Counted from the first letter of the stretch, positions 1,405-19,831 are shown. The stretch: 64,000 nucleotides of DNA from an uncultured Acidobacteriota bacterium (GCA_963740655.1 CAVUFF010000001.1:23442-87441), one strand, 5' to 3'. Translations and numbers: made by a program. Notes: generated by a model not told the origin, from the letters alone.

Positions 1405-2765
1405 AGCCTCGCGTGCTGATCATCGACGACGAGGACGCCGTGCGCTCCTCGCTCAAGATGATCTTCGAGTACGAGGGCTACGACACGCTGCAGGCGGCCA
1501 ACGGGCCGGTCGGGCTGAAGCTCGCGGAGCAGGAGGCGCCCGACCTCGTGTTCCTCGACGTGCGCATGCCGCAGCTCGACGGGCTCGACGTGCTGAAGCG
1601 GCTCAAGGAGCGGGACCCGGCGCTGCCCGTCGTGATCCTGTCCGGCCACGGCACCGTCAAGACGGCGGTCGAAGCCGTCAAGCTCGGGGCGTTCGACTTC
1701 ATCGAGAAGCCGCCCGACAGCGAGCGGATCCTGATCGCGGCGCGCAACGCGCTCGGCCACAAGAAGCTCGCCGAGGAGAACCGGAGGCTGCGGCTCGAGT
1801 TCGACGACCGCTACCGGATGGTTGGCGAGAGCCCGGCGCTTTCGAAGGTGTGGGACGCGGTGCGGCGCGCGGCGCCCACGAGCGCGACGGTCCTGATCAC
1901 CGGCGAGAGCGGCGTGGGCAAGGAGCTCGTCGCGCGCGCGATCCACCGCAACTCGCTGCGCGCCGACGAGGCCTTCGTGCAGGTGAACTGCGCGGCGATC
2001 CCGGAGGAGCTGATCGAGAGCGAGCTGTTCGGGCACGAGAAGGGATCGTTCACGGGCGCGACCGAGAAGCAGATCGGCAAGTTCGAGCTGGCGCACCGCG
2101 GCACGATCTTCCTCGACGAGGTGGGCGACATGAGCCTGCGCACGCAGGCCAAGGTGCTGCGCGTGCTGCAGGAGGGCGAGGTCGAGCGCATCGGCTCGCA
2201 GAAGACGATCGAGGTGGACGTGCGCGTGATCGCCGCCACCAACAAGAACCTCGAGGAGGAGATCGCGCGGGACCGCTTCCGCGAGGACCTCTTCTTCCGG
2301 CTGTCGGTCGTGCCGGTCGCGGTTCCGGCGCTGCGCGAGCGGCCGGAGGACATCGCTCCGCTCGTCGAGCACTTCACGCGCCAGTTCCGCTCGGAGAACA
2401 ACGTGCGCCCGCGCGGCTTCACGAAGGAGGCGACGGGCGCGATGGCGCGCCACGCCTGGCGCGGCAACGTGCGCGAGCTCAAGAACGCCGTCGAGCGGCT
2501 CCTGATCATGGTGGAGGACGACGAGGTGCGGCCCGATCACCTCAAGGACGTCCTGCGCCGCCCGGCCGACGAGCCCGCAGCCGCCCCGCCCGCGGCCGCG
2601 ACGCTCCGCGACTTCAAGGAAGGCGCCGAGCGGGCGTTCCTGGTCCAGAAGCTGCGCGAGAGCGGCTGGAACATCTCGGCCACCGCCGCCGCGATCGGCA
2701 CGCCGCGCTCGAACCTCTACAAGAAGCTCGAGGCCTACGGCATCAGCCAGGAGAAGGACGGCTAG
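1401..2765 (+). CDS. Sigma54-dependent NtrC/NtrX-family response regulator
   Basis: Receiver domain (IIDDE, FLDVRMP, KP), AAA+ domain ([28 protein letters not shown]) and Fis-type HTH. Confidence 0.95.
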
Positions 2766-2767
2766 AG
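2744..2767 (+). repeat. attL, 24-bp direct repeat CAGCCAGGAGAAGGACGGCTAGAG
   Basis: Exact match to 17096-17119; overlaps the last codons and stop of the regulator gene. Confidence 0.9.
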
Positions 2768-2846
2768 GTAGCTCGCGTAAGTGCCATGCGGAGCATACGG
2801 TTGCTCCTGAGGGGTAGCCACGGATGTTGCCGCTTTTGCTCGGATG

Positions 2847-4000
2847 TTACCAACCGGGGTCGAAGGCCCCCCGCGCTAGGCTGTCCATAGCCCCCGGCGC
2901 GGTCAGGCTGAACCAGCTGCCGTAGACGTCGACGGTCATTTTGACGGAGGCGTGGCCGCCTGCTGCTGCACGTAGACGGGAGAGCAGCCGAGCGGATCAG
3001 CAGAGTGCAGAACGTGTGCCTGAGGCTGTGCGGAGTGAAGTGCGAGGGCAGCTTGCCGATCGCAGGCAGCGCTCCATCGCGCGGCGCACGATCTTGGCGG
3101 CCCGCTGCTCGTCGCGGCTGTAGGCTTCGCGGGAAGCCACGGGAACACGATCGCAAGGGCGAGAGTGCTCGCCGCGTACGGCTGCAAACTCTCCGCGCGA
3201 CGCCGGGCTAGAAGACCCGGAGGAGGTCCACGACGGAAGCGGCGATCTCGACGTTGCGCTCGACGCCGGATTTGGTAGAGGCCGACGTGATCTGCTCGTG
3301 CACACGGAGCGCGTCTTCAAAGTCGCACGAAGCCACTTCGAGTCCGAGCGCTTCACCGAGACGAAGCCCGCAGAGAGCCATCAGGAGGAACGCGGGGCAG
3401 ACGTCGGGCTCCCGCTCGGCGGCGATGGAGAAGAGGCGGTTGCGCTGCTAGAGGTTACATGGCCTTGACGTCTCGGCAGACGGCAGCAGATAGTACGCAT
3501 GTTGAGCCGCCTTGGTGCGGCGCCTTGACGGAACACCCCGAGGGCCGGGTTGCTCGGTGATCACTCGTCTAGAACGGCGAGAGCGAGCACGAGCGAGAGC
3601 ACGGGCGGATCTGCAGCGAGGTGTTCAGCGCGAGGAGCGCTCCGCGGTGTGCAGGTGCGATAGCCTTTCTGTCTCTGGCAGGTTAGTGCTCGGCTGGCGC
3701 TTAGAGATGCAGCAGCGATGCGGATGTAGGAGGGCGTCGATGTCGCGAATGCTTCATAGGGCAGAGAGTCGGGGAGGAGATGATTGATGAAGGATCTGCT
3801 GGTACGATGAGCAGTGCACGGCGCTACTCGTCTCGCTGACGGTAGGCGAGGAAGCGCGGGAGGTAGTGAGAGAGTGATGAACGGGTAGACGACGGGATGG
3901 CGTCTTCTGGGCTTGCGCAAGAGCTGGACTTGGCGTCGTCCGCTCGCTTGGTAAGGTAGAGCTTCACGACACGGCGACTGTGGATGAAGGCGTCCACGAC
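2847..4000 (-). CDS. Tyrosine recombinase/integrase (frameshifted in this sequence; 5' boundary approximate)
   Basis: Manual minus-strand translation across frames gives [15 protein letters not shown] (box I), [18 protein letters not shown] (HxxR) and [15 protein letters not shown] (H...Y). Confidence 0.85.
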
Positions 4001-4919
4001 AGGTGCGCGGCGCTTAGTGACTGGTATATAGATATAGCTGGTTAGAGAGATAGAAGAAATAGGTTGCTAGATGCAGGTAGCGCTTGTGGTTAGAGATGAG
4101 AGATATTTAGAAGTGTAGATAGCTAAGGGAGAGATGCGGTGGTTTGGTTATGGTAGCGCTGAGAGTTAGGTGAGAGTTTGGGGAGATATAAGTGGTTATG
4201 TTGGTGCGGATGGTGAGGTAAGGGAGGAGAGAGGGAGTAATATATAGAGAGAGAGATTGTTAGAGAATGGTGCTAGATAAGCTAAGAGCAAGTTAGAGTG
4301 GGGAGAGGTAGGTGGGAGCTTAGTGATATGTGTGGTGTATTAGTTATAGTATGGGGGAAGAAAGGGAGATTTTATAGAAAGTTTAGCGCATAGAGATAAC
4401 TGCGTTTGATGCTGAGAGCTTGGCTGTGAGGTAAGATAAGAAAGTTGAGGTGCGTGGTTGGTGAGCGAGGAAGTGGGGATAAACAGTGAAGGAGGTTGAG
4501 TGGTGAGCTAGGTGCTAGAGAGTTAGGTGCTGCGCGTGATTGTGCAAGCTTATAGGAGATAGTTAAGGGAGTTGCGAGCGCTAGGTAAGCTGATAGGGTA
4601 TAGAGGTGCTAGCGGTGGGTTTCACTTAGGCAGCGGTATACGCTTTACTCTATTGAGAGCTTGAAAGGAGCGCTGATTTGATGTTAATAATAATGGTATC
4701 AGGGAGCAGGTAAAGCAGAAAAAGGATGTAGGTAGGGGCGCACTACGCTGAGGCATTGGTACTGCTGTTGCAAAACGTAAGTGAATAGCTTACTTTCAAG
4801 GTATGGATATGACACACGGTGAAGTGTTGGGAGGGAGGGGAAAAAAAGAGCAAGGAGATAAAGAAGGAAAAGGTAATGAGCGCAATATGATTTATATGAG
4901 TGCAAAGACAAGGAGGGTA

Positions 4920-5246
4920 AGCACTTGGTGGGGTTAGGAAAACTAAAGGTATAGATCTAAGAGGACAAAGATAGGTGGATAGCTAAGGGATTAGATATAG
5001 ACTACTTCGCGGAGGGCGCGTTCCCTCGAGTCCGCTCAGAAGGCCTTAGAGAAGGGGCTCGCGGCTACAGTGAAGGAACACCTCAAGCTGTACGGCTCCA
5101 TCGAGAAGATGCTGGTTGTCGCTCAGAAGGAAGAGTGGGACGTCTTCTACTAGAACACCGGCGGTTTCCATACGCTCAGCGAGGTCAGCTTTCACGACAT
5201 GCAGCCGACCTTCGATGCGATCGTCTTTCTAGCCAAAGCAGCCTAG
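4920..5246 (+). CDS. HicB-like antitoxin-fold protein (degraded sequence)
   Basis: Traceable peptide WIAKGLDIDYFAEGA-SLESAQKALEKGLAATVKEHLKLYGSIEKML resembles the HicB N-terminal fold; internal stops and one frameshift. Confidence 0.4.
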
Positions 5247-5252
5247 GACGCC

Positions 5253-5507
5253 GTGTCCGACGGCGACGTACCAAAGCAGCATGTCATCAGGGTGTTCGAG
5301 GCCCACGGGGTAAGCTGCTATCCGCAGGCTGAGGATCCCAGCATGACGGTGATCACGGACGGCAAGGGCACGACCGACGCCTATGCTCTCATGGATCCCA
5401 TTGGCCGCCGGATGGTGTGCAAGCTAGCTCACAAGTTCGGTGTTCCGATCCACCTGATCCATAACCCACACCTGCTCCCGCCGCCTCCTGATCGAAAGCG
5501 CCCCTAA
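5253..5507 (+). CDS. Small protein, possibly HicA-like toxin
   Basis: 84 aa with a helix-strands-helix pattern (VIRVFEAHGV...RRMVCKLAHKFGVP); starts 6 bp after the HicB-like ORF. Confidence 0.4.
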   Translation: MSDGDVPKQHVIRVFEAHGVSCYPQAEDPSMTVITDGKGTTDAYALMDPIGRRMVCKLAHKFGVPIHLIHNPHLLPPPPDRKRP

Positions 5508-5652
5508 CTCGCAGCGCTGATCAGCACCCCGAGTTCAGCGCCAAGCGAGCCGACGAACTCGGGCACGAAGTAGACCGCGAGCTCAGAGCCAGCCGAGATC
5601 AGCTTCCCGCTGTCGTCCCGGACGAGCCAGGCACCCGCCGAGCCCCGCGCGC

Positions 5653-6015
5653 TCACCAAGAAAAAGAAGCGCTAGCGGCTTCCGGCAACGGCCCCGCGAC
5701 CGCTCTCGCGACGGGCAGCCTCGGCGGCGCCGGCTTCTCGAGCGGATAGAACTTCAGCACATAGCGCTCGCCGAGCATCGGGCGCGTCGTGCGTCGCCGA
5801 GACCAGCACCAGAAAAAGCGCCTTGAGTCCGCGGTCTCGAGCAGGGCGCCGACATTCCGCACTTGGACCACTCTGCGCGTCGTCTTTACAAGCCGCGCTG
5901 CGCGCTCACGAAAACACGACCGACAGGTTAGCGGCGGCAGCTCGAAGCGCAGGGCGTCGAATTCGAAGCTCGCGCCACAGGTCGCGCAGCGGCTCTCGCG
6001 GAACTCAGTTCTCAT
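5653..6015 (-). CDS. Zinc-ribbon protein (CxxC-x17-CxxC)
   Basis: CATC...CRSC motif at the N-terminus; co-oriented with the element's gene cluster. Confidence 0.5.
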   Translation of the reverse strand: MRTEFRESRCATCGASFEFDALRFELPPLTCRSCFRERAARLVKTTRRVVQVRNVGALLETADSRRFFWCWSRRRTTRPMLGERYVLKFYPLEKPAPPRLPVARAVAGPLPEAASASFSW

Positions 6016-6236
6016 CGGTCAGCGATACGACGGGCGGCGACGAGCAGCGTGCGCGCGGTGTTGTGATGCCGGCGGGTGCGGGCCGCGGAGGAGGCGCCGC
6101 GCGCCTCGGAGATCGAGTGCCACTCGCCGCCGCCCACGGGACGAGCACGTATCGTGACGTGTAGATCCCGCCACGATCATGCGCGCCCCGCTCCGCCTCC
6201 AGGACCGCCGCGAAGGTAGCGGCCTAAGAGAGTCCT

Positions 6237-6845
6237 TCACCGCGACGCACCTTCACGAATGACGCGTCCCGGATCATCCGTCGCCGCCGCGCTCTTTGCG
6301 ATGCGGACGATTCGCTTTGCCAGCTCGTGCGCGCGCGCGACGTGCTCGATTACTTCGGCCTCGGGGCGACCAGCCACAGCGGCACGGATCGCGGCGTGCC
6401 GTTCCTCATATAGCTGCGGCGCGTTCGCATAGATGGTGTTGAGCGCGGCCGCATCGTCGTCGTTGCCGGTCGCGCTCTTCACGAACGCGACGAGCTCGGC
6501 GCAGGCGATGTCGTCGAACAACAGCGCGATTTCGTCCCGCCGCAGCCGCGTGTCGCCCGTCGTATTGCGCACGTGCCGCTCGTAAAGCGCCGCACCGTCG
6601 CCTCGATAGAACTCGTCGCGCGCCTCGCTGCGCAATCGCTTCTCGGTCTCTGCCGCGCAGTGCTCTTCCAAAAACTTCGACGCGGCAGCGTAGCTCGCCT
6701 TGGCATCGGTAGCGCGCTCGAAGAACAGGCGCAGGGCTTCCTTCAAAGGCTTGCCCGGGAAACTCTCCTTGGCCTGCTCTTCGATACCCGAAATGATGCG
6801 GCGGCACGTCTCGGGATCGTGCGGCCGTGCGGAGAGCCCGCTCAT
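6237..6845 (-). CDS. Hypothetical helical protein with repeated A..(F/Y)....LY motif
   Basis: 202-aa ORF with natural composition; ATGA-coupled to the upstream ORF. Confidence 0.6.
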   Translation of the reverse strand: MSGLSARPHDPETCRRIISGIEEQAKESFPGKPLKEALRLFFERATDAKASYAAASKFLEEHCAAETEKRLRSEARDEFYRGDGAALYERHVRNTTGDTRLRRDEIALLFDDIACAELVAFVKSATGNDDDAAALNTIYANAPQLYEERHAAIRAAVAGRPEAEVIEHVARAHELAKRIVRIAKSAAATDDPGRVIREGASR

Positions 6846-7651
6846 GCCGCACCCCCAAGCCGCTGCGCCGCTTCGCGCTTCGCGTGTGCCGCGACGTTCG
6901 CGGCTCTGGCAGCCGCTTCGCGCCGCTCACGAAAGGTCACGAGATGTGCACCGACCAGCGGGCGCCACTCTTCACGAAGTCGGGGCTTCAGCACATTCCG
7001 GCTCACGATGAAATCGGGGGCCAGGCCCGTGAGGCGCCTGCGCTGGAGTTCCTCGCGCAAGTCGAAGGAGACGACAACGTCGGCGATGTCGCCGGTGGCG
7101 GCGAAGACTTCTTGCGCCGCGCTGTAATGCTCTCTGTAGGCATCCACGAAACGGAACACGTGGTCTTGGGACACTTCCCCTGCGTCGAAACGCGCGCGCG
7201 ACTTTGCGAGGGCTGCCGAAAGCTCGTAGCGCCAGGCCTTCATCAGCGCGACCGCGAGCGTCCCCAGCTCCGCCTCGACTTCGGGCAGCAGCCGCGCCAG
7301 GCCGCGAGCCTTCGCGCCGGCGTCGTTCAGCGTGCGCGCCGCGAGGGCCGTGCTCTGGCGCGCGGCGTCTGCGCCGATCTGGTCGCTCTTCGCCAAACAC
7401 ATCTCGCGCGCGTCGGCGAGCCGATCCATCTCGGCCCGCGACTCGGCCACGATGCGCTCGCACTCCGCGTTCGCGTCCCTGGCCTGCCGCACCCTACCCT
7501 CGAGCTCGCGCAGTCGCTGCTCGGCCGCCTCTCGTCCGGTTACTGTCTTCATGTCGTCCATCCTACGAAACCGCCTTGTCCGAGCCGCGTGTCTCCGCGA
7601 CACGAGCGCGCACCTAAACCGCCTCGGCATTCCGTCTACGTGCACGGCCAT
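6842..7651 (-). CDS. Hypothetical coiled-coil protein (true start probably near 7560)
   Basis: A/E/R-rich heptad-like segment (EQRLRELEGRVRQARDANAECERIVAESRAEMDRL). Confidence 0.55.
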   Translation of the reverse strand: MAVHVDGMPRRFRCALVSRRHAARTRRFRRMDDMKTVTGREAAEQRLRELEGRVRQARDANAECERIVAESRAEMDRLADAREMCLAKSDQIGADAARQSTALAARTLNDAGAKARGLARLLPEVEAELGTLAVALMKAWRYELSAALAKSRARFDAGEVSQDHVFRFVDAYREHYSAAQEVFAATGDIADVVVSFDLREELQRRRLTGLAPDFIVSRNVLKPRLREEWRPLVGAHLVTFRERREAAARAANVAAHAKREAAQRLGGAA

Positions 7652-7989
7652 GCTTGCCCGCGCCGTGCGCGTGCGTCCGCGCGCGAGTCAAGCGCTTGTT
7701 TTCGAGATAAGCGCGGAACTCCCGCTCGCGGATCCGCAGCGTGCGAGGCCCGAGATGCGAGGCCCACACCTTCGCGTCCCTCGCGCGCGACCACGACCAT
7801 ATGCGCCTGATCGGCACCTTCGCGATGGCTGCGGCGTCTGGGCCTCGAGCAAGTTCTCGGGCGCCGGCGTTCCCATCGCGGCTCCGAGAGCCGCGAGCCT
7901 GGCGGCGAGCGCGAGCACGAGCGCGCCACGCTCGACCGGCGTCGCGGCGGCGATGAGCGCGTAGAGCGTGGCGAAGGCGTAGTCGCGCA

Positions 7990-9535
7990 TCACCATCCGC
8001 TCGGCCAGCGCTTGCGCGAGAGTTCCGCGTGCGCGAGAAAGGTCCCGCCACTGTCGAGGACGGCGCCTTCGTGGTCGCGCATGTCGTCGGCTTGCTCGTC
8101 AGACGGGCCGCTCAGGTAGTCGGGCGCATATGAGCGCGCCGCGAGTACGCGCCGGCAGCAGCGACACGAGGCCGGCGAGCGCATTGGCGAGGTCGTCGTG
8201 GCTGCCGGGCCGATGGTCCACGCGGTCCTTTCCACTCGGCCCGCGTCTGCGCTCGAGCGCAGCGAAGCTCGCGCAAGTAGGTCGCGGCAGTTCTGGGAAT
8301 CTCGATGCCGGCCGCTTGTATGACGGGCAAGAGGCTCGAGGTAAAGCGCGCTGCGATCGTGCTCGGCGACCCTGTACGTGCGATGCTGCGCTTCCGGAAT
8401 TGCTCGACGCGGCCATTCGCCAGCGAAGCTGATCGCCCGTGACTTCGCGCACGTGATACGAGCGCAAGAGGTCCGCGCATTCGCTCGATGACGCCTTCGA
8501 AGGATTAAACGGCGCTTTCCAGGCGCGACACGCAGTCCGTCACGATCACGTCGCCGGCACGATGCCCAATGGCGCACGTGAACGAATCAGAGCGCCCGCC
8601 GGACGGATCAACGAAGCCGCGATAGGAACCCTCCGCCGCCGGCGGAAGTTCGCGGCGCCGCGTGACGACGCACGCCTGGAGCGCTTCGGGATCGAGCAAC
8701 GTGCGCAGAGGCCCGCGCGGAACTCGCCGAGCACCTCGGAGCGATAGGCCTCGGGATCGTCGCGCTCCATCCGCGCGATGTAGTCGCTCGGCAAGCCGGG
8801 GTTGAGGTCGAGCGCCGACGACTGCACGACAAACGCGGTCGGGTCGGGCTTGCCGAAGTTCTTCCCGAACGTGTCCCATGCCCAACCCGACTGAGCATAG
8901 GGCGAGGTCAACACGAGCAGCGGGCCGCCGGTCGTCGCGAGGCACGGCCAGGCCGCTCTAATCGTTTCGAGGTCGAGCGGACGCCCGTCCGTGCTCGTGA
9001 ACCATGCGGCCTCGTCTACGATCACCATGATCGCGACGAGGCCTCGGAGCGCGGCCGGCCTGCAGGGATAAACGCTGATGCAGACCCCGTTCTTTAGCTC
9101 GAGCGTGTCGCTGGTCCGTCGCACCACGAGGTCCCGAAAGGCGGGCACCGTGTCGAACACTTCGCACACGTAGCCGAACGCTACTCGCGTCGAGGCCCTC
9201 TGATCCTGAGCAATCAGAACGACGTGCTTGCCGCGCGCCGATGGTGGGGCGGTCGCCCCCACGAACGCAGCGAACGTCGTTGCCATGCGCGTCTTGCCAA
9301 CTTGCCGCGCGCAGATCAGCAGTAGCAATTTCAGGAAGCGCTGAAGCAAGGTCGGACGCCCCGTGTGCGCCAGGATCCACTCCGTCTCCCACGGATCGAG
9401 AGGAAGCGCGGCCCACGCCCGGAAGATCGCGATCCAGCCCCGCCACGACGACAGGTCCTTGAAGCAAGGCATGGCGCCCAGCAGCTTCGGGTCGCGAAGT
9501 GCCACGAGGAAGCGCTCGACGGTCGAAGCCTTCAC
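7990..9535 (-). CDS. Terminase large subunit (frameshifted)
   Basis: Walker A ICARQVGKT, Walker B VIVDEAAW and coupling motif LTSP in 8546-9535. RNase H-like nuclease motifs GFVDPSGGRSDSF and DHRPGSHDDLANA lie in adjacent frames. Confidence 0.82.
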
Positions 9536-9753
9536 TGGATCCCCCTATGCGGCATTCCGCTCTCGAACTGCTGCAGCGCTTCCACGAGCTCGACCGCATC
9601 GGCCAGGCGCACCATCTGCTCGTGCGTCACCTCGCGCAGCACGTAGCGCAAGAGCGCCCGCACCTCGTGCTCGTCCCAGATGAGAGCCACGACGCGCAGG
9701 ACTTCCGTGAGCGTGGCAAGCCTCTGCTCGGAGGTCACGAGGTACCTGCGCAT
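9532..9753 (-). CDS. Small helical hypothetical protein coupled to terL
   Basis: 73-aa ORF whose stop overlaps the terL GTG start. Confidence 0.45.
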   Translation of the reverse strand: MRRYLVTSEQRLATLTEVLRVVALIWDEHEVRALLRYVLREVTHEQMVRLADAVELVEALQQFESGMPHRGIQ

Positions 9754-10006
9754 GACGCACTCAACAGGGCACGCTCAGCAAGGCAATTGCAGATTAGCTA
9801 GAATGCCATCTGGCGCGGGTTTAAGCGAGGTACGCACGCCAGCGCAAGCGCACACATGCGCAAGGAATTCGCAGCATTAGCGCGGGCAGAATCACGCGGC
9901 GCTATGAATCAGGCAAATGCGGCAGAGGGTAGCGTTTGAAAGCACCTGGCGTAGAACACTTCGTAGTTCACGACAGGACGCCATTACATCGCTAGACACT
10001 CCACGC

Positions 10007-10620
10007 TCACGCGGCGGCGTTCTGCCATCGCCACACGGCCAATACAGACAGGAACACGTCGAACAACTCGGCCATCTGGTCGACCGGGATGATGCGCACC
10101 TCGACCACATCGCCGGCCACCTTGGGCACGCGGACGATGCAACCCGCGATCGGCCCGTCGATGATTCCCTGCTCGCGGGCCGCGAACTCGTAGGCGGCGA
10201 CTTGTAACCCGGCCTCCGGGTAGATCTGCCCGCGGTTGCTCTTCCAGTCCCCGATCACCCGCAACGGCGTGCCTCGTGCGTGATCTGGCCGATCCAGTCC
10301 GCAGTGCCGCGTAGCCGTAGCGCTCGCTGTAGACCGTGTGCTCGATCGACGTAGCCCACAGGCCCGCCGAACGCCGCCACTACCGCCACGCGGAGAAGGC
10401 GGACCAGACGCGGGGGTCGGTCAGTTCGGGCGACGAACCAGCACCGCCCAGGTCAATCCGCAGCGCGGGCTCGATCAGCGCGTGGATCTGGCTGCCCGTG
10501 TCGCCGCTTCACGCAACGCCTTGACGTGCGCCTTCTCCTGCGGCAGCAGACGCCGGATAGCGCTTCCGACGAAGCCCTACGGCGACAGCGCGCTGAAAGC
10601 TCGGTGTACGCGGTCGCCGC
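10007..10620 (-). CDS. PD-(D/E)xK (RecB/Cas4-like) phage nuclease, frameshifted, 5' end lost
   Basis: Motifs DTGSQIHALIE, EHTVYSERYGYA and VIGDWKS...LQVAAY across frames. Confidence 0.7.
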
Positions 10621-13047
10621 GAAGTATAAGAAAAGAGAAAGTTAGAGAAGAGAGATAAAGAAAAAGAGATGAGGATAGGAAATGAAGGAAAGAAAAGAAG
10701 TAAAGATAGGAAGATAAAGGTAAAAGAAGAGGTAGAAGAGAGTAGAAAAATGAGAGAGAGAAGGAAAGGAGAAGAAGAAGGAGTGGAGGTAGAGGAAAAT
10801 AAAGAAAAATAAGAATAAGGAAAAAAAGAGAGATGAAAGAGATGGATAAAGAAGAGAAAGATAAAGAGAAGAAGGGAAGAGAGAGAGAAAAAGAGTAGAA
10901 GGGAGAAAAGAAAAGAGGAGTAGGGAAGGGGAAAGTAGAGTAAAAATAAAGGAAGGAGGAATAAAGAGGGGTATAAAGAGGATAAAAGAAGGAAGATAAA
11001 GAAGAAAGAAAATAAGAGGGGAAAAAGAAGGAGAAAAAAAAGATGTGAAAATAATAGTAGAAATAAGTATGGAGAGGAAGGAAGAGAGGAAAGAGGGAGA
11101 GAAGAATAGAGAGAAAAAGGAAAAAGATAATATAAGAAGAGATAAGGTAGAGAGAGAGAGGAAAAAGAAAAAAAAGGAGGAAATAGAAAGAAAAAGTAAA
11201 AAATAGGAAAGATAATAAAAATAGAAGTAATGATAAGAAGAAAAATAGTAGGAGTAGAAAAAGATGTAGAAGTGATAGTAAGAGAAAGGAAGAAGGTAAA
11301 AAAAAAAGGGTAAAGAGAAAAGATAAGATTTAGTAAAGAATAAAAATAGATAAAGTAAGGAAGAGAGAGAAAATAGAGAGAAATGAAAAAGAGATAAAAG
11401 TAAAAAAAGGAGAAAAATAGAAAGAGAAAAGAGGATAGAAGATAAAGAGAAAAAATAGAGAGAAGAAAGAGGAAAGAGAAAGAAAGAAGGGGATAGAAAG
11501 AATAATAGAAGATATAGAAGTGATGATAGAAGTAAAGATAGTAATAGAGAAGAGAGTAAAAAGAGAGGAAAAAATAATTAGTGAAAAGAAGGAAAGAATG
11601 AGGATAAAAATAAGTATAGAAAAGGTAAAGATGAGTAGAAGGAAAGTAATAGTAAAGAATGGAGTATTAGAGAGAATAAGAAAAAAAAGTGAAGTAGAGA
11701 TAGAGATAATAGAGAGGAAAGAGAGTGGGGTATTGATAGAAATAAAAGAAAGAGGTGATGTGAGAGAATAGATAGAGAGGAAATAAAAGATGAAAAAAGA
11801 GTAAGAGAAATGATAAAGAAGTGTGAGAAAGAGAGGATAGAGATTAGTAAGAAAATAGAAGAGATAAGAGTAGAAAGAAGGAAAAGTGAAAGTATAGAGA
11901 GAGAGAGAAGTATAGTAGTTAGAAGTATAGCTCATCTCTCAAGATATAAGAGGATAAAGAGGCTCTATAAGTTAAAGATGTGATAGATTCCACCGGCTGG
12001 AAGCGGCACGCCTTGTGCACAGCGATGAAGCTTTCGCAGGCAGCGGTAAGGGCGCTGGCGCTCGCCCTCGGCGCGTGAGCCTCCGTGTCGCACTCCAAGC
12101 AACGCAGCACCGCGGCATCGAGCGTCATGTGCTTGTAGAGCGCCGAGAGCAACTGCGGCCCATGTAGGTATCGGCCACCTGCGCATACCGCGCCTCGCGC
12201 GCTCTGTCCCGCAGCATGTGGTAGCAGCTCTCCTCCACGAGCAGCGCCAGCACTGCCTCTCACTCCGGCTCGCTCGCCAGACGGCTGACCGCCGCCACGA
12301 ACGCAGGCGCTACGTCTCCGGCTCGCTCTGAGGCAGCTGGTACATCATCTCGGCCACGTAGCGCTTCGTCTCCCCTCGCGTCATCGCTCCTCCTCGCTCT
12401 GCTCGTCCGTAGGCTTTTCCACAGGCTCGCTGCTCTGCACGGCCTCGGGCTCCGGCTGCGCCTCGACGGCCTGCGCGCGGCGGCGCCTGCTCGGCTTCCT
12501 CCTGCGCCTGCGCGCGCTCAGCAACTGCTCGAGACTGGCGACGGGCTTGGGCGCGCGCTCGAGGCTGAGGGCGACAAGATCCTCACGGAGCGCTCGCGAC
12601 AGCATCACGTAGTCTTCGCAAGCTGGCTCACGTGCGACGCCTGCGGTTGACGATCCAGGCGGGCTTGGCATCAAGATCTCGGCGACGTGCTCGGCATCAC
12701 GTGCTTGACGTGGCCAGCTTGAGCAGCTCGAGGTAGCGACGCGAGCGACTCCTCGCGCTTGGTAGACGCGTAGTCGGCAGCTCACTGCGGGCCTCCCGGA
12801 CAAGCGGCATGCGATTGTCGAGACCTCCAGGCTGTGCGCCTCAGCGCTTGGCGAGCGCGGACGTGCGTGCTTCCGATGCTCGATCTTCCGCCTGTGCGGA
12901 TTCCTTGAGCGGGTCACGATGGCAACCACCCGGCAACATGGGCAGCTAACCGCTGATGCACAACGAGCGGAAAACGTCTGAATGAGGGCATTAGAGGACA
13001 GGAGGCCGCGAAACGCGATCGTCCGAGGCCTGGAAAGCCGCACGCTC

Positions 13048-13217
13048 GGGGGGTACTCCTGAGAAGGGGGGTACTCCTGAGGAGTAGTCCGCGGAGTAGT
13101 TGTCCGGAGTAGCACGGGAGGGTAGGGGGGTACTACTCCTCCCGACATCTGTTTAAGTCGGGAGGAGAGGAGTAGTACCCCCCCTCCTGTGGCGTCTCGG
13201 GAGTTGTCAGGAGTAGT
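13048..13217. repeat. Iteron-like GGAGTAG/TACTCC cluster with hairpin; putative replication origin
   Basis: GGAGTAG at 13081, 13093, 13106, 13169 and 13210; inverted TACTCCT at 13054, 13072 and 13134; directly downstream of the primase gene. Confidence 0.65.
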
Positions 13218-13221
13218 GTCG

Positions 13222-15360
13222 TCACGGGGCTTCCTCGGGGTTGCTGGAGGGCTTGAGCGTGAAGATGCGGATCTGGCCGCGGCTGGTCTTCACGGGCTCG
13301 ACGGCCAGGTGGCTCTCGCGGAAGGTCGACCAGCCGGACCAGTCGGAGGGGGCGGCGTAGTTCTTCTTGCCGGCGGTCTGGTAGACCTTCACGATGTCGG
13401 CGCTCATGAGTTGGTAGCCGGGGGCGCTGCGGAAGGCCATGAGCAGGGAATCCCTGATCTGGTCCTGCTGTTGGCTGGCGCGAGCGGAGCGGGCGTCGAG
13501 GGCCTTTTCCTTCTGCTGCTCGCGGGCCTTGGCGGCGGCGGCTCGCAGGGTCTCGTCGACCGGGCCTGCGGCGCACGGGACGAGCTCACAGAACGGGGTC
13601 GAGACTTCGGCTCGGAATGAGACCACGAAGGCGTGGGGCGGGGTCTTGCGCCAGTTGGTGTAGTTCGCCTTCACGAGGTAGACGAGGCGGCGTTCGCGGT
13701 CTTCGTCGGCGGGATCGAGCAGGATCAGGATCTGGGCGCGGGCGGTGCCGGTGAGCGCGACGGAGCCGCTGCCGAGTTGTGCGGCCGAGTCGGCGGAGGC
13801 TGCGCGCTGCTGGGTGTTGGTCTTGACCAGGTGTCGGATCCACCAGATGTTGCAGCCGGTGCGGTGGCAGATGCTGGCGAGGGCGGCCATGGTCTTGCGC
13901 GTCGCGGCGTCGGACACGGCCGACTCGGGGAGGGTTGCTGCGCCGGGGTCGAGGAAGACATGGCGCAGGTCGAGGGTGCGGATGGTCGTTCGAGCTTGGC
14001 GGCGCCGATGGTGGGCAGGAACTCGTCGTTCAGGACGAGCGGGATGTCGTCGGTCGCGAACACGAGACGGCGGTCGGCGCCGGCGGCGATCGCGCGCGAC
14101 ACGATCGCCTTCTTGACCGACTCCTCGATGGTGCAGATCAAGCTGCGCTCGGGCGGGCGGATGCCCGGTCGCGTGATGTCGATCGACTGCTCGTGCAGGG
14201 GCCAGCCACGGCTCAGGCGCGCGGCCTTGTCGATGTAGTAGAGGCCCTTGCCGAGGCCTGGGTCGGCGTCGATGATGATCGGCTCGCCGCGCGGAAACCA
14301 GTGTTCGGGCTCGTCGAGGAACTCGAGGGGCTCGGGCTCGATGTCGGCGAGGCACACGACGCCGGCGAGGCCCTCGGGCTCCGTCTCGGGGTCTGGGGAG
14401 TCCGGGTCCATCGGCTCCGCCTTCGTCGCCTTTGGCTCGTAGACGTCCGCCGCGTTCGCGACGGCACGCGACACGGTCCTTTCGCCGTAGGTCATCGCGC
14501 CGCGGCGCTCGTCCCACTTCGGACGCATGAGCTTCGAGCGGCGGAATAGCCTGTCGATCCGCTCGGCGTCGCGCCGGGTCCAGAACGCCAGGTTGGAGCA
14601 GAGCGCCATGTCGGCCGACGAGTGGTCGTCGGCGTGCCCAGATAGATCGCCGTCCCAGAGCGCGCGGAACCTCAAGCCGTTCGGCTGCCGCGCACGCACG
14701 CCGCAAGAGCTCGTCGTCCTCCAGCTGGAGCTCGAGCGGCAGCGATGGCGGCAGCGGCACGCTCGCTGCCATGGGCGGGAAATACTCCGTGACGAGCCGG
14801 TCGAGCCCGTCCTGGCAGTCTTCGACCGTGGGCGGGGTGCCCTTCAGGTGCCTCCCCGTCACCGTGAAGTAGCGTCCCTTCGAGTAGATCTCGATCTTCG
14901 AGCCGGGCGTCTTCATCGGGCCGACGCGCCCGGCGACGTCGCCGGGGATCTGCCCGTCCATGAGCACGTGCAAACCGTCTCCGGATGGCGTCACCTCGGC
15001 GTAGGTCTTGAAGTGCTTTAGGATCTCGACCGCTTCGGGGATCAGCTGCCCATTCACGATCACGTGATCGAGATCCATCCCGGTCTTGTCATCGTCGAAC
15101 ACGTAGCCGAGGCCAAACTGTCGACTACTCGCGCTTGACGTGGCGATGTCGAAGCTCGCCCATGTTGCCGGGTTCGTGCTCGAGGCACCCCCGGTGCTAT
15201 CGACGCGCAGCGGTGGCTTGTCCCACTTCTGCTTTTTGTCGCTCCACGTCGGCTGCCAGTTCACCCACTGCGCGCGCTCGCGCAACTCGTCGGGGATCAA
15301 CTCGACGTTGAAGGTGGGATCAGGCCGCGGCGGGCGCGGCTTGGGCGCCTCGGTGCTCAT
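13222..15360 (-). CDS. AEP primase-polymerase (NrS-1-like) fused to a helix bundle and a RecA-like AAA_25 ATPase; two frameshifts
   Basis: AEP motifs GMDLDH, EVTPSGDGLHV and EIYSKGRYFTVTG. Helix bundle DHSSADMALCSNLAFW...IDRLFRRSKL. Walker A DADPGLGKG and Walker B VFLDP. Confidence 0.85.
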   Translation of the reverse strand: MSTEAPKPRPPRPDPTFNVELIPDELRERAQWVNWQPTWSDKKQKWDKPPLRVDSTGGASSTNPATWASFDIATSSASSRQFGLGYVFDDDKTGMDLDHVIVNGQLIPEAVEILKHFKTYAEVTPSGDGLHVLMDGQIPGDVAGRVGPMKTPGSKIEIYSKGRYFTVTGRHLKGTPPTVEDCQDGLDRLVTEYFPPMAASVPLPPSLPLELQLEDDELLRRACAAAERLEVPRALGRRSIWARRRPLVGRHGALLQPGVLDPARRRADRQAIPPLEAHASEVGRAPRRDDLRRKDRVACRRERGGRLRAKGDEGGADGPGLPRPRDGARGPRRRRVPRRHRARAPRVPRRARTLVSARRADHHRRRPRPRQGPLLHRQGRAPEPWLAPARAVDRHHATGHPPARAQLDLHHRGVGQEGDRVARDRRRRRPPSRVRDRRHPARPERRVPAHHRRRQARTTIRTLDLRHVFLDPGAATLPESAVSDAATRKTMAALASICHRTGCNIWWIRHLVKTNTQQRAASADSAAQLGSGSVALTGTARAQILILLDPADEDRERRLVYLVKANYTNWRKTPPHAFVVSFRAEVSTPFCELVPCAAGPVDETLRAAAAKAREQQKEKALDARSARASQQQDQIRDSLLMAFRSAPGYQLMSADIVKVYQTAGKKNYAAPSDWSGWSTFRESHLAVEPVKTSRGQIRIFTLKPSSNPEEAP

Positions 15361-16934
15361 ACCGCTGCCCTCCGCGCGAACGCTGCGCTCAAGGCGTCGC
15401 TCGCTTCGCCCTTGGACATCCCGTGTCGCCAAAGACCCTTGCGCAGCAATAGGTCGCGTTGCTTCTGGCTCGCGGGTGCCTGACGCCAAGGCGCGGAGCG
15501 ATCGTTGAGCAACACCGCCCGCGCCTTGTGGACGAGATCCTCGGCGACACCCTGCGCGTAGCCGAGCGGCAAACCGGACGCGACCGTCACGCCAGCGGCG
15601 CCGCGAGCGACGCGCACGACGTCCCACGCCTCGCCGCCGCGCTGAACGAGCAGCAGCAGACCATCCGCACCGAGGCTCAACGAGAAGCGCCCGGCGTCCG
15701 CCTGCGTCCAGTGCAACTTGTGGCGGCGGAAGACGTCGACCGTCTCCGCCAACAGCTGAGCCGACGCCTGCTCCTTGCGTTCCTCCGCCTCGCGCGCCAT
15801 CTCGAAGCCGAGCACCGAATCACCAAGTTCGAGCGCCTCGACCGGGGTGTCGAACAGGATCGCCGCAGTGATGAGGTCGTGCCGGGACGTCGCTCCGACC
15901 AGGTCCAGGACGAGCAGGTCAGACTTGCCGGGAAAGCTTCGCGTGCCTCGGCCAATCATCTGGCAGTAGAGCGCCTTCGAGCGCGTCGGGCGCGCGACGA
16001 TCACGCAGTCGACCGACGGCTCGTCGAAGCCCTCGGTCAACACAGCGCAGTTCGCGACAACCGGTGTCGAGCCCTCCCGCAGCCGGCGCAGGATGCCGCG
16101 CCGCGCGTCGGTCGGCGTCGCGGCATCAATCGACTCCGCGGCGACCCCCTTCGCTTGAAACGCGGCAGCCGCCGCCTTCGCTACGGCCACGGTCGGCGTG
16201 AAGACCAACGCCTTGCGCCCCAGCGCGTGCTCTACGTAGGCCCGCGCCGCGTGCTCGGGTGCGTCGGCTCGCATGAGCTCGGCCTCGACTTCGCCGAGCG
16301 CGTAGTCTCCCGCCCGTACATGGAACGAGAAGTCGGCACCCGCAAGCCTGATCTGCTTCGCCTTGATGTCGGCCAGGTACTGACCCTTGATCATCGCGAG
16401 GATCGAGGACTCGTAGACCACCTCGTCGAAGATCTCGCCGAGGCTCTCGCCATCCGCACGAAACGCGGTCGCCGTTACACCCAGGACGAGAGGACCACCA
16501 TCGGCGAACGCACCGACGCCTTCGAGCACGCTGCGATAGCTCTCGGCCGTCGCGTGGTGCGCCTCGTCGACCACGGTCGTAGTGAGGGGGCCTGCCTCAA
16601 GGATGCGAGCGAGGCGGGCCTGCCGCATGACCGTTTGCACGCTGGCAACCACGACCGGAGCGTCGGCCTCGTCGCGCTCCGCCTTCACCACGCCGACGTG
16701 GACATCCGGCGCAACGATCCGGAGTTTCTCCACGGCCTGCTCGAGCAGTTCGTCGCGGTGCGCGAGCACGAGCGCCCGGCCTCGACGACGTCGGATCACC
16801 TCCGCGAAGACGATGGTCTTGCCCGTGCCTGTGGGCAGCGCGATCAGTGGGCGCCGAATGCCTCGGGCAGCGGCAGCCTCGACGGCCTCGACCGCTGCCG
16901 TCTGGTATGGCCGCAGACTGATGGCGCCGCTCAT
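15357..16934 (-). CDS. SF2 DEAH helicase (Irc3/RadD-like, phage type)
   Basis: LRPYQ, PTGTGKT, VDEAHH, GVTAT, LTEGFD and QMIGRGTR motifs. Confidence 0.92.
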   Translation of the reverse strand: MSGAISLRPYQTAAVEAVEAAAARGIRRPLIALPTGTGKTIVFAEVIRRRRGRALVLAHRDELLEQAVEKLRIVAPDVHVGVVKAERDEADAPVVVASVQTVMRQARLARILEAGPLTTTVVDEAHHATAESYRSVLEGVGAFADGGPLVLGVTATAFRADGESLGEIFDEVVYESSILAMIKGQYLADIKAKQIRLAGADFSFHVRAGDYALGEVEAELMRADAPEHAARAYVEHALGRKALVFTPTVAVAKAAAAAFQAKGVAAESIDAATPTDARRGILRRLREGSTPVVANCAVLTEGFDEPSVDCVIVARPTRSKALYCQMIGRGTRSFPGKSDLLVLDLVGATSRHDLITAAILFDTPVEALELGDSVLGFEMAREAEERKEQASAQLLAETVDVFRRHKLHWTQADAGRFSLSLGADGLLLLVQRGGEAWDVVRVARGAAGVTVASGLPLGYAQGVAEDLVHKARAVLLNDRSAPWRQAPASQKQRDLLLRKGLWRHGMSKGEASDALSAAFARRAAV

Positions 16935-17095
16935 CGGGCGCCATCCTTGCCGCCCGACGTGTTACCACCCGTGTTGCCAGTCCAACCGGCCGACCCCGGA
17001 CCAAGCGGGTCATGCTTCGACGAGCAGTCGGCTGGATCTTCGGTTGGAGCGGCAGTTACGGCGTTTGGGTCGTCTTGGTCGGGTCCCCGTCACTA

Positions 17096-17119
17096 CAGCC
17101 AGGAGAAGGACGGCTAGAG
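17096..17119 (+). repeat. attR, second copy of the 24-bp repeat
   Basis: Identical to 2744-2767. Confidence 0.9.
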
Positions 17120-17382
17120 CCGGGGGGCCAGCTTCCCCTCGTCAACCCGACGCGGCAAAGTTTGCCCTTGACTCCTGTGCCTGTGGAGGGCAAATTCCCG
17201 CTGACCATCAGCGCCTCCCTCTCTTCATCATTCGTTGCTCATGGACAGCGCGACTGAGGCGCCTCACACCGTTCGTCCGTCAACGGGGAGGTGGCAATGT
17301 CCAGGCTAGTCCCACCGAATCAAAGCCAGCGGTGGGCGCACCCCAATGGTTTCGACAAGAACCAGACAAGGGAGGGAGAGTG

Positions 17383-17790
17383 ATGAAGGTAGGGTATTGG
17401 GTGGCCTGTCTTGGTGTCGCGTCCGTCGTCCTGATGGGTGCGGCGGGCAGCGCGAGAGCGGCTGACGAGTGGTACGTGCTTGCCGAGAAGACGCTCAAGT
17501 CCAGTGATCCAAGCACGGAAATCAAGAGCAAAGGGGATCGCTGGGAGAACGACATCAAGAAGATGAGGATCTCCGTCCAGGGCGCTGACGTGGAGATCAC
17601 GAAGGTCGTCCTCCGCTGGAGCGGTCGCCCAGACGACACCATCAGCAACGTCGGAGTCCTGAAGTCGGGAGGAGAAACGGCTCCGAAGGACGCTCCGGGA
17701 CTCAAGGCGCGCCTCGATTCGGTGATCGTCCAGTACAAGATCCTTGGTGGTGCACCGACGGCCACGCTCAAGCTCTGGGGATTCGACTGA
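17383..17790 (+). CDS. Secreted beta-rich protein (DUF2541/YaaI-like)
   Basis: GGAGG RBS, signal peptide ending ARA-A, alternating beta-strand pattern. Confidence 0.65.
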   Translation: MKVGYWVACLGVASVVLMGAAGSARAADEWYVLAEKTLKSSDPSTEIKSKGDRWENDIKKMRISVQGADVEITKVVLRWSGRPDDTISNVGVLKSGGETAPKDAPGLKARLDSVIVQYKILGGAPTATLKLWGFD

Positions 17791-17888
17791 GCGAACGCCG
17801 ACCGGCGGGGATGTTGGGGCTCGGCTTGGTCGGGGCCGCTGTTGGCCACGAGTAGGGCGGCTAGAGTCGGTCGGTGCGAGATCGGCCG

Positions 17889-18074
17889 CTAGTCGGACGT
17901 CTCGAGTGCCTTCAAGCGCTTGAGCGCCTGCTTCATGAGTTCTGCCGCATCATGGGCGATCTTTGCTTCGCCCGCGCGTTCGATGTGCGGCACTCGCCGG
18001 TTCAGCGCGTCGATGAGCTGCCGCAGATGCCGTATGGTGCGCTTCTTCTCGGCGTCGTCACTCCTGGCCGTCAT
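17889..18074 (-). CDS. Small helical hypothetical protein
   Basis: 61-aa ORF with TGCTAGAAT extended -10 just upstream. Confidence 0.55.
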   Translation of the reverse strand: MTARSDDAEKKRTIRHLRQLIDALNRRVPHIERAGEAKIAHDAAELMKQALKRLKALETSD

Positions 18075-18142
18075 GACGGCGCGATTCTAGCATCGCCGGA
18101 CGCATCAGCCACCCGATGTAGACTCCGCGCCGGAGGTGGGAG

Positions 18143-19831
18143 ATGCGCCAGGTGGCCACGACTGTGGTGCTCTTGGCTCTCGGCCTCGGGCCGGTCGGCG
18201 CGAGGGCTGCGTCCGGACCGGGCTTCGAGGTCCGGCTGGCGGCGCCGGCTCGAACGACGCCCGTGGACGGGCGGCTCGTGTTGATCGTGTCCCGGGAGCT
18301 CGAGGGCGAGCCGCGCCAGCAGGTGAAGTGGGGCAAGGACACGCAGCAGATCTTCGCCGTCGACGTCGAGGGTCTCCGGCACGGGCAGAGCGTGCGTGTG
18401 GACGCGTCCGCGCTCGGTTATCCGCTCGCGAGCCTGCACGAGCTTCCGGCCGGGACTTACAACGTGCAGGCGGTGCTGAACGTGTACGAGACCGTCCACC
18501 GGGCCGATGGCCACGTCCTCAAGGTGCCGTGGGACGACGGTGAGGGGCAGTCGTGGGACAGCTCCCCGGGCAACCTGAGGAGCAAGCCCAGGCAGGTCGC
18601 CTTGGACGCGCGCAGCGTGATCGCTCTGGATCTCACCGAGACGATCCCGCCGATCCCGCTGCCGGCGGACACGAAGTACGTGCGCAGCGTGACGGTCGAG
18701 AGCGCGCGGCTCTCGCGCTTCTGGGGGCACCCGGTGTCGCTGCGCGCGATCGTGCTGGTGCCCGAGGGCTTCGACGAGCACCCCGAGCGGCGCTACCCGG
18801 TCGCGTTCGAGCAGGGCCACTTCGAGCGGGGCTTCCCCCTGTTCCGCGAGACGCCGCCCGACCCGAGCGCCCAGGGCGACGCGCGACGCCACCAGGACCT
18901 GGGTTATCGGGCCTTCCAGGACTGGACGAATGACCGGCTGCCGCGGATCCTCGTGGTCCTCACCCAGCATCCCACGCCCTACTACGACGACTCCTACGGT
19001 GTGAACACCGCCAACATGGGACCCTACGGCGATGCGCTCACGCAGGAGCTCTACCCGGAGGTCGAGCGGCGCTTCCGCGCGATCGGCGAGCCGTGGGCAC
19101 GCGTGCTCTTCGGCGGGTCGACGGGCGGCTGGATGAGCCTCGCGCAGCAGATCTTCTATCCCGACTACTTCGGCGGCACGTGGAGCCTCTGCCCGGACCC
19201 CGTGGACTTCCACGCGTTCCAGCTCGTCAACGTCTACGAGGAGAAGAGCGCGTACTTCGACGTCGGTCCCTTCGACCGCATTCCCAAGCCGCTCGGGCGG
19301 CTGCGGGACGGCCGGACGCTCGCCACCATGGAAGGGTTCAGCCGCCAGGAGGCCGTGCTCGGCACGCGCGGCCGCTCGGGCGGCCAGATGGACGCGTTCC
19401 ACGCCGTGTTCGGCCCGGTCGGCCCCGACGGCTACCCGGCGAAGCTATGGAAGGCGGATACGGGCGAGATCGACCCCGATGTCGCCCGCTACTGGCGCGA
19501 GCACTTCGACCTCACCGCCATCCTGCAGCGCGACTGGCCGACGCTCGGGCCGAAGCTCGTCGGCAGGCTCCACTTGACGATGGGCACCAAGGACACCTTC
19601 TACCTGGACGGCGCCGCGCACCTGCTCGAGAACTTCCTCGACGGCACGAAGCGACCCGGCAGGGGTCCTTACTGGGGCGGCACGTTCGAGTGGGGAGCCG
19701 ACGAGCCTCACTGCTACTCGGGCAAGTTTGCGCCGGGCGAGACCTTCGAGACGCACTACCTGCCGATCTTCGCCGCGCACGTGCGTGGAATGGCGCCCGC
19801 CGACGCCGACGTCCAGGGCTGGGCTAGATAG
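18143..19831 (+). CDS. Secreted alpha/beta-hydrolase (putative esterase family)
   Basis: Signal peptide; nucleophile elbow GGSTGG; MGTKD and a C-terminal His. Confidence 0.8.
   Translation: MRQVATTVVLLALGLGPVGARAASGPGFEVRLAAPARTTPVDGRLVLIVSRELEGEPRQQVKWGKDTQQIFAVDVEGLRHGQSVRVDASALGYPLASLHELPAGTYNVQAVLNVYETVHRADGHVLKVPWDDGEGQSWDSSPGNLRSKPRQVALDARSVIALDLTETIPPIPLPADTKYVRSVTVESARLSRFWGHPVSLRAIVLVPEGFDEHPERRYPVAFEQGHFERGFPLFRETPPDPSAQGDARRHQDLGYRAFQDWTNDRLPRILVVLTQHPTPYYDDSYGVNTANMGPYGDALTQELYPEVERRFRAIGEPWARVLFGGSTGGWMSLAQQIFYPDYFGGTWSLCPDPVDFHAFQLVNVYEEKSAYFDVGPFDRIPKPLGRLRDGRTLATMEGFSRQEAVLGTRGRSGGQMDAFHAVFGPVGPDGYPAKLWKADTGEIDPDVARYWREHFDLTAILQRDWPTLGPKLVGRLHLTMGTKDTFYLDGAAHLLENFLDGTKRPGRGPYWGGTFEWGADEPHCYSGKFAPGETFETHYLPIFAAHVRGMAPADADVQGWAR

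Follow-up and report, generated by a model that had tools for sequence, protein, structure and literature searches.

Can a small integrated element that brings its own motor for phage DNA packaging, but no recognizable capsid or portal, live as a phage satellite? This question is raised by a 64,000-nt stretch of DNA (hereafter the window) from an uncultured Acidobacteriota bacterium (GCA_963740655.1, CAVUFF010000001.1:23442-87441), whose metagenome-assembled genome (MAG) comprises 4.99 Mb in 11 contigs, is 86% complete and has 71% G+C. An initial annotation, made from the sequence of the window, had described positions 2768-17119 as a candidate new satellite type, namely an element bounded by attachment (att) repeats with a terminase large subunit (TerL) and no visible capsid, portal or tail. 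Here, our analysis leans slightly towards the view that this element is an integrative, self-replicating, helper-dependent phage satellite with its own large terminase and without capsid or portal. The presence of a TerL without a recognizable capsid held up. The element is not a lone oddity; it belongs to a widespread group of islands 8-17 kb in size, in which its copy is divergent and badly assembled.

The large terminase and its surroundings

A gene for a large terminase with ATPase and nuclease domains was found at 8102-9535 on the minus strand of the window (phrog_2, 6.5e-17; phrog_7579, 8.2e-13). By tblastn, residues 31-474 of the 487-aa TerL of another genome (G006, see below) could be aligned with window positions 9502-8147 at 44% identity. 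The initial annotation had called this TerL full-length. It does span the length of its relatives and has their motifs, but as assembled it contains at least four frame changes in the nuclease half (frame pieces at 9535-8715, 8715-8527, 8533-8430, ~8380-8300 and 8275-8147), and the single open frame covers only the first 329 aa. The strings ARQVGKT, VIVDEAAW and DRVDH...HDD are readable in the tblastn alignment, and we take them to be the Walker A, Walker B and C-terminal DxxDH...HDD nuclease motifs, respectively. The window protein has the features of a tailed-phage TerL, i.e., a Walker A/B ATPase and an RNase H-like nuclease with catalytic Asp. With respect to known satellites, a large terminase belongs to the set of phage-inducible chromosomal islands that form capsids (cfPICIs), and its presence breaks the rule that phage-inducible chromosomal islands (PICIs) have no other structural or packaging genes.

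The start of terL is overlapped by a 73-aa open reading frame (ORF) on the same strand (9532-9753) with a strong coding signal (G+C at third codon positions, GC3, of 0.90). It showed no match to the small terminase subunit (TerS) or to any other Pfam or PHROG family, and an unreadable stretch (junk tract 2, see below) lies 1 kb upstream. The predicted complex of its product with the TerL ATPase domain, run without controls, scored 0.00. Further upstream, the segment 10010-10420 (minus strand) encodes a PD-(D/E)XK-like nuclease of which only the C-terminal part is left, with readable D-x-K and QxxxY motifs; the N-terminus is lost in tract 2. The nuclease reported previously is supported by this signal, but only as a C-terminal piece running into tract 2, with a PDDEXK_1 match (E 0.024, 15 bits) below the cut-off.

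No ORF above 269 aa was found in the readable space after terL. Two intact ORFs are present there, both on the minus strand. The larger (6842-7651) encodes a near-orphan all-alpha protein of 236-269 aa with a long helical hairpin (AlphaFold2 predicted local distance difference test score, pLDDT, of 84.6; helices only), for which a search of 5.8 billion proteins returned one relative besides itself and the model of which had no PDB match at E<=0.001. At the feature level, look-alikes of the 236-aa ORF were unnamed clusters and one cluster with 20% Psu members, all at low recognition, which is a lead only; the protein is a speculative candidate for a capsid-assembly or interference factor. The smaller (6237-6845) encodes another near-orphan all-alpha protein of 202 aa (pLDDT 77.0; helices only) with five relatives among 1.84 billion representatives searched. 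Only generic structural matches were obtained for the two models. Neither protein has an HK97 fold, and both fall short of the length of a portal. A short stretch of ambiguous frame that separates terL from the 236-aa ORF (7617-8111, minus strand) had no PHROG or Pfam match; a signal for PF12728 (excisionase/HTH_17-like) at 7695-7838 was not significant (15 bits, E 0.175).

When minus-strand frames of at least ~70 aa and one plus-strand ORF of the element were scanned against Pfam or PHROGs, no head, portal or tail family was detected besides TerL. Among the cfPICI features, the major capsid protein and prohead protease had no match in the scanned ORFs, with the junk tracts unreadable, and neither the portal nor the head-tail adaptor/connector was found in these ORFs. 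AlpA (PF05930) had no match in the element, tract 1 beside the integrase being unreadable. The previous description of small or helical unknown ORFs after terL, and of no visible capsid or portal, agrees with these results: HK97 capsid and portal were looked for in the scanned ORFs and not found. A six-frame search of the whole genome likewise returned nothing for capsid and protease (PF05065, PF04586 and phrog_283) or for portal (PF04860 and phrog_145). However, this is a weak test because the same search with phrog_2 failed to report the window TerL (8102-9535), although its 329-aa frame scores 6.5e-17 by hmmscan. Negative results of six-frame searches on frame-shifted genes call for caution.

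Terminase relatives in small islands of many phyla

TerL relatives with 35-64% identity were observed in small islands of many phyla. Three of 60 related genomes encode such a protein (34-50% identity). One of the three, G035, has a 10.85-kb island at tRNA-Cys that is bounded by a 46-nt repeat and contains an integrase, DnaB, a 167-aa ORF, TerL and unknown genes; in another, G006, TerL lies beside tRNA-Cys together with an integrase, a primase-helicase and an S78 protease-like gene, and a contig end cuts the locus. With one genome scanned per species, 42 loci belonging to at least eight phyla encode TerL relatives. ORFs were clustered for 43 loci, i.e., these 42 species-representative loci and L012. 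The TerL cluster was present in 40 of them and one tyrosine-integrase cluster, within 10 kb, in 26. A ~130-aa ORF was located directly upstream of terL in 13 loci by clustering and in 22 by a hidden Markov model (HMM), which was built from the 13 members and used in a single-round search; iteration drifted into TerL (over-extended terL frames). The nearest named look-alikes of this upstream-ORF family are Terminase_4 small subunits (score 0.89), which we regard as a lead only. Replication proteins of several kinds were found in the group (D5_N/DUF5906 and AAA_25), and its general layout is integrase, replication genes, small ORF and TerL.

Clustering of the 43 loci revealed no portal or capsid cluster common to loci at >=27% identity; the only candidate for one is an unannotated cluster of three loci, located after terL in the set that is most distant (23-24% identity). 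For eight islands, att repeats of 25-66 nt define the ends, giving sizes of 8.35, 9.0, 10.45, 10.85, 12.3, 12.86, 13.66 and 16.96 kb. Their 83 proteins of at least 90 aa include eight integrase and eight TerL matches as well as primases and regulators, and no portal or head family occurs among the families listed for them (25 of 110). Ten post-terL proteins of the group were also scanned singly, with no head family found. Of the 35 full-length TerL members, 31-35 show conservation at Walker A, at Walker B and at three Asp columns of the nuclease. As a positive control, we examined a phage fragment in IMG/VR whose TerL is 39% identical, and it showed a portal (1.8e-86), a gp7-like protein (2.7e-58) and a major head protein (1.1e-60); these three proteins had no relative in the other loci or in the window at E<=1. 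An HK97 capsid gene was seen in one of five host genomes of other members, on a contig of 109,457 nt, with the island on a contig of 133,835 nt. Carriers in culture include Erythrobacter sp. T5W1-R, with an 8.35-kb island, and Nocardioides caeni DSM 23134, with a 12.9-kb island and an HK97 capsid gene on a different contig.

Among 50,697 deposited phage genomes, the closest TerL has 27% identity over 63% of the query. Out of 18 IMG/VR loci, the six closest ones (38-59% identity) are on contigs that measure 4.7-15 kb, with one of 48 kb. None of these six has terminal repeats, and hence there is no evidence of complete packaged genomes in IMG/VR. In a quick maximum-likelihood tree, the window TerL fell together with nine TerLs, all of which are in small integrase-bearing islands. 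In support of the satellite proposal of the initial annotation, the closest TerL relatives are not in full-size prophages, and the eight att-delimited islands span 8.3-17 kb. The window element has the traits by which we informally delimit the group, including att sites enclosing 14.35 kb, an integrase, a replication module, a TerL of this clade and no portal or capsid found. It departs from the other islands in its helicase and primase and in its att site, which is the end of a protein gene and not a tRNA.

Integration site, replication genes and flanks

The element lies at the 3' end of a gene for an NtrC-like sigma-54-dependent response regulator (1401-2765, plus strand; Pfam Sigma54_activat 2.5e-73, Response_reg 1e-31 and HTH_8), orthologues of which were found in 14 same-genus genomes at 83-92% DNA identity. 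Both att repeats of the initial annotation were recovered: the 24-nt attL (2744-2767) and attR (17096-17119) cores form a perfect direct repeat that encloses 14.35 kb. The attL core contains the last 22 nt and the stop codon of the regulator gene, which is kept whole because the left copy carries its last codons and stop. The attR core and the next 5 nt equal the orthologous gene end in the same-genus genome G015 (29/29 nt). The insertion at this site is real, and the tyrosine integrase placed the element at the 24-nt site overlapping the stop codon of the NtrC-like gene. The element is present once in its own genome.

Nearly all genes of the element are on the minus strand, with one converging plus-strand fragment at 5030-5507. 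The integrase, superfamily 2 (SF2) helicase, archaeo-eukaryotic primase (AEP)-ATPase and origin-like repeats that had been listed previously were all recovered, to different degrees of integrity. The tyrosine integrase (2743-3998, minus strand) is degraded, with frame changes and one in-frame TAG, and its N-terminal part fades into junk tract 1; it is nevertheless detected by PF00589 at 2986-3393 (36.5 bits, cut-off 27.1), has an HSLRHTF motif in the ORF 2743-3156 and gave tblastn matches with a family integrase as query at 3447-2977 and 2957-2877. The helicase (15357-16934, minus strand; ResIII/DEAD type) is intact with 525 aa (ResIII 1.5e-26, Helicase_C 1.7e-14, phrog_16 1.8e-88). In 400 other genomes of the phylum, its closest relatives have 41-42% identity, and in the search for sibling elements the neighbours of these relatives shared nothing else with the window element. 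Next to it, the segment 13222-15350 (minus strand) encodes an AEP-type primase-polymerase in two frames (two frame changes), with an NrS-1-like helix-bundle domain (HBD) and a RepA/AAA_25-like ATPase (phrog_1829, 4.7e-39; phrog_13901, 3.6e-37; PF22763, NrS-1 polymerase HBD, 7.1e-31); the AAA_25 matches (24.7 and 18.2 bits) are under the cut-off of 27. With the integrase and this primase-replicase, two features of the PICI set are present, as detected by Pfam and PHROG families. Directly downstream of the primase gene, a cluster of iterons forms a putative origin (13048-13183) with four copies of GGGGGGTACTMCT, three direct and one inverted, against 0.08 expected; four copies were reached in 0 of 100 shuffles. 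The stretch between the iterons and junk tract 2 had no family match.

To the right of the element, the RNase P RNA gene rnpB is located at 19913-20297 on the plus strand (RF00010, 275.9 bits). Eleven orthologous loci of the same genus were compared. In three of them (G014, G002 and G003), 55-120 nt separate the regulator gene from rnpB, and in G011, G008 and G015 the gap holds 0.6-1.3 kb or more of other DNA. By this comparison, rnpB is the ancestral right neighbour of the regulator gene. Given the empty site in three same-genus genomes, the window carries 17.1 kb of extra DNA (2766-19912), which consists of the 14.35-kb element, a 0.75-kb remnant and ~2 kb with an esterase-like ORF. The remnant (17120-17866) ends in a third, degenerate att-like site (17843-17866, 19/24 nt) that resembles the element-side arm (46 of 63 aligned columns identical; score 53 versus a shuffle maximum of 35). 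This remnant, directly after attR, looks like the stump of an older, related insertion. It also includes a 132-aa secreted-looking ORF, which sits in a ~640-nt segment present in several copies (84-93% identity) in the same-genus genomes G015 and G001. The interval that separates the NtrC-like gene from rnpB is an insertion hotspot with tandem accretion.

Unreadable tracts and assembly quality

Two tracts inside the element, ~1.1 and ~1.5 kb long, are unreadable. Tract 1 (3998-5055) is C-poor (C 0.09), rich in G, A and T and low in GC; tract 2 (10550-12063) is A/G-rich (A 0.53, G 0.30, C 0.04). Both are nearly C-free and are not tandem repeats. The initial annotation had noted ~2.3 kb of such DNA; the tracts are there, but the unreadable DNA totals ~2.4-2.6 kb. 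It had further stated that neither tract lies downstream of terL, which proved incorrect: as the genes are on the minus strand, tract 1 lies downstream of terL, ~3 kb beyond, and tract 2 upstream. In a scan of the complete 4.99 Mb, these two were the only tracts >1 kb; five other flagged spots were 211-361 nt long and of balanced composition. The tracts are probably an artefact of basecalling, long reads or assembly, to which low coverage or modified DNA of the element may be linked. Because no others of that size are found in the MAG, the window copy is considered badly assembled.

Base quality appears to fall toward the tracts, as seen in the integrase, which fades out in tract 1. Each tract is partly occupied by neighbouring genes extending into it and could conceal at most about one mid-sized gene. 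As the tracts are unique to this spot in 5 Mb, the frame breaks look like sequencing error, and they read as long-read error in a poorly covered region, perhaps with the element in only part of the population. The assembly is so poor that the gene integrity of this copy cannot be judged.

The satellite hypothesis and its alternatives

If the element is a satellite as proposed, it would excise upon infection or induction of a helper tailed phage, and the AEP primase-helicase and SF2 helicase would replicate it from the iteron origin. TerL, perhaps aided by a small partner that the window copy does not reveal, would then cut the element DNA and pump it into procapsids built by the helper, which would supply tails and lysis too. 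The all-alpha proteins encoded after terL might remodel or interfere with helper capsid assembly, which is speculative. Helper dependence, packaging into helper proheads and autonomous replication are inferred here from gene content. With regard to the whole group, we see an even chance of a widespread satellite class that has a complete terminase (TerL plus a small partner) and no capsid or portal, and that takes over helper procapsids at the portal-motor step and not by TerS mimicry or capsid resizing. As part of the same proposal, such a class would span Acidobacteriota, Planctomycetota, Nitrospirota, Verrucomicrobiota, Gemmatimonadota, Alpha- and Gammaproteobacteria and Actinomycetota, with the window element as a divergent member that encodes novel helical proteins along with an AEP primase and an SF2 helicase.

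Several observations weigh against these views. Excision, packaging and a helper are predictions from the gene content. A resident helper was not seen, in that capsid and portal families were not found by a weak search of an 86%-complete genome. About 2.5 kb is unreadable, so each tract could have room for one capsid-sized gene. The integrase, TerL and primase are broken as assembled, which could reflect decay instead of sequencing error. TerL is the only tie between the window element and the other islands: its branch is long (1.29), perhaps partly from sequence error, and the small-island clade is joined at just 84% in the Shimodaira-Hasegawa-like approximate likelihood ratio test (SH-aLRT). 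Relatives of the window helicase (best 42%) are in unrelated contexts. The HMM of the upstream ORF of the group, which matched 22 loci, hit no frame in the window; tract 2 may conceal this ORF, or the 73-aa ORF may have taken its place. For the eight att-delimited islands, single head or portal matches could be hidden because 25 of 110 families were listed. In addition, two members have an S78 protease-like gene, and therefore the group is not wholly free of head genes.

A different function of the terminase has to be considered. The islands might not be satellites but integrative elements that spread by another route, in which a TerL-like ATPase-nuclease poisons or competes with the packaging of infecting phages or processes the island's own replication products. 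No helper, pac/cos site or partner protein is evident, the weak six-frame search detected no head genes of a resident phage in the genome that carries the element, the accessory ORFs of the group are unknowns, and satellites and prophages that target packaging are known. However, with the ATPase and nuclease catalytic residues preserved in 31-35 of 35 members, a working terminase is a better fit than a decoy, the pairing of a small upstream ORF with TerL in 22 of 43 loci mirrors the terS-terL order, and Terminase_4 small subunits, at 0.89, are the look-alikes of that ORF, again as a lead only. We therefore regard this explanation as unlikely, if worth keeping in mind. Decay of a full-size prophage, by deletions that left the integrase, replication genes and TerL, would account for the interruption of the integrase, TerL and primase in this assembly, and phage-borne and island-borne TerLs are indeed interleaved in the wider tree. 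It is nonetheless quite improbable: islands of this small layout, with their genes intact and measuring 8.3-17 kb between att sites, are found again and again across many phyla, no close TerL relative was found in a full-size prophage, and the breaks look like sequencing error, with junk tracts unique to this spot.

The remaining two explanations concern what may be concealed or created by the poor sequence. It is slightly less probable still that the element is a very small but complete virus with an unrecognizable capsid and portal, these being either novel folds in the unknown ORFs or genes in the junk tracts. The readable unknown ORFs are short and all-alpha, portal, capsid and tail genes would not all fit into the leftover space, and well-assembled relatives also lack portal and capsid genes, even though ~2.5 kb is unreadable here, several ORFs have no relatives and the plus-strand gene runs into tract 1. 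Finally, the two junk tracts and numerous frame changes, to which only this region is subject, could mean that it was assembled from one or a few noisy long reads, maybe chimeric, and that the gene set does not represent one real element. We give little credence to this idea, as a perfect att repeat is present at both ends, the right junction equals the gene end of a relative, and the gene order is coherent, on one strand and in accordance with the group layout.

Comparison with known phage satellites

PICIs, for which a set of core genes has been defined, are described as carrying no other phage structural genes (de Sousa et al., 2023; SatelliteFinder, PMC10085698), with a median size of 9.5 kb (PMC10085698). 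The cfPICI core comprises terL together with genes for the major capsid protein, protease, portal and head-tail adaptor/connector, while tails are borrowed (PMC10085698; PMC10690885; bioRxiv 10.1101/2022.09.08.507074). The contrast drawn in the initial annotation, with TerS at most in PICIs and TerL together with capsid and head-tail genes in cfPICIs, agrees with the available text of PMC10085698. As described in these sources, PICIs resemble the window element in being small and att-bounded, with similar size, an integrase at one end, a primase-replicase and own origin, a packaging module at the far end and presumed helper dependence. However, they redirect packaging by a small terminase or cos and use the TerL of the helper, whereas the element and its group carry a full TerL. 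In the readable part of the window, no AlpA, Stl, MerR regulator, capsid-morphogenesis gene or recognized TerS was found. PICIs have been described in Proteobacteria and Firmicutes, at least in the sources cited, whereas the hosts here are from soil and water phyla outside these two. The cfPICIs share with the element an own TerL, but their head genes were not found here, and a protease-like gene is present in only two group members.

P4 is similar to the element in having an integrase, a large primase-helicase and small helical proteins, and its Sid and Psu act on the helper capsid; unlike the element, P4 has a cos site, uses the P2 terminase and, in the accounts cited, has no TerL (PMC10690885; PMC4936722). 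TerLs of tailed phages (phrog_2 type) have the same Walker A/B ATPase and RNase H-like nuclease with conserved Asp, but the nearest of them in the 50,697 phage genomes is at 27% identity, and no portal gene follows terL here. The available description of AH14b gives no terminase. For VEIMEs (virion-encapsidated integrative mobile elements), small-subunit homologues and "motor-like ATPases" have been reported, and a table note states that 8% of VEIMEs encode terminases (PMC12822802). According to the sources at hand, the TerL of the helper is borrowed by P4, PICIs, PICMIs (phage-inducible chromosomal minimalist islands) and VEIMEs (presumed by the authors for the last), and the whole head is brought by cfPICIs and Streptomyces satellites. 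No description of a TerL-bearing, capsid-less satellite class was found in the literature searched, parts of which were available as abstracts or excerpts; supplementary files might list terminase-bearing VEIMEs.

If the satellite hypothesis is true, a motor-only island would represent a third strategy besides borrowing TerL or bringing the whole head, and it would raise the question of how a foreign TerL docks on the helper portal and excludes the helper's own terminase. Such a group would escape tools that require known core sets. It would also be a warning to annotators that a lone terminase beside an integrase is not necessarily a dead prophage. To our knowledge, no satellite has been studied in the soil, groundwater and marine phyla of this group.

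Other ORFs of the element and layouts of distant relatives

Two more ORFs of the element are located beyond the helical proteins. A 120-aa ORF (5653-6015, minus strand) has a zinc-ribbon-like N-terminus with CxxC...CxxC (Zn_ribbon_8, E 0.013, below the cut-off) and no PHROG match. The converging gene at 5030-5507 (plus strand) is represented by its C-terminal part of ~160 aa with two in-frame stops and a codon-position GC signal, its N-terminus being in tract 1; the last 84 aa had no Pfam or PHROG match.

A Peptidase_S78 (prohead protease)-like gene adjoins terL in loci L011 (11155-11724, 3.7e-12) and L018 (11913-12899, 2.6e-21), with no capsid gene nearby, and an iterated HMM from these proteins recovered only its two seeds. 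In L043 (13135-14817), the TerL relative is near a large serine recombinase (phrog_95, 2.4e-54) and not a tyrosine integrase, and in L040 (12663-17212) a phrog_6216 protein and a baseplate-hub-like one come after terL. Judging from these two arrangements, the wider TerL clade holds other layouts. L057 is KX853514.1 (Virus Rctr16k), a 16.7-kb "partial genome" from an enrichment culture, the annotation of which comprises an integrase, tail and replication proteins and a terminase-like frame followed by two ORFs, but no capsid or portal; the terminase-like frame has 27.7% identity to the G006 TerL over 47%, and L057 might be a related small element. Lastly, L017, L018 and L044 share a neighbouring pair of ORFs of ~257 and 499 aa (clusters c7 and c8), which may be cargo, e.g., a defence pair.

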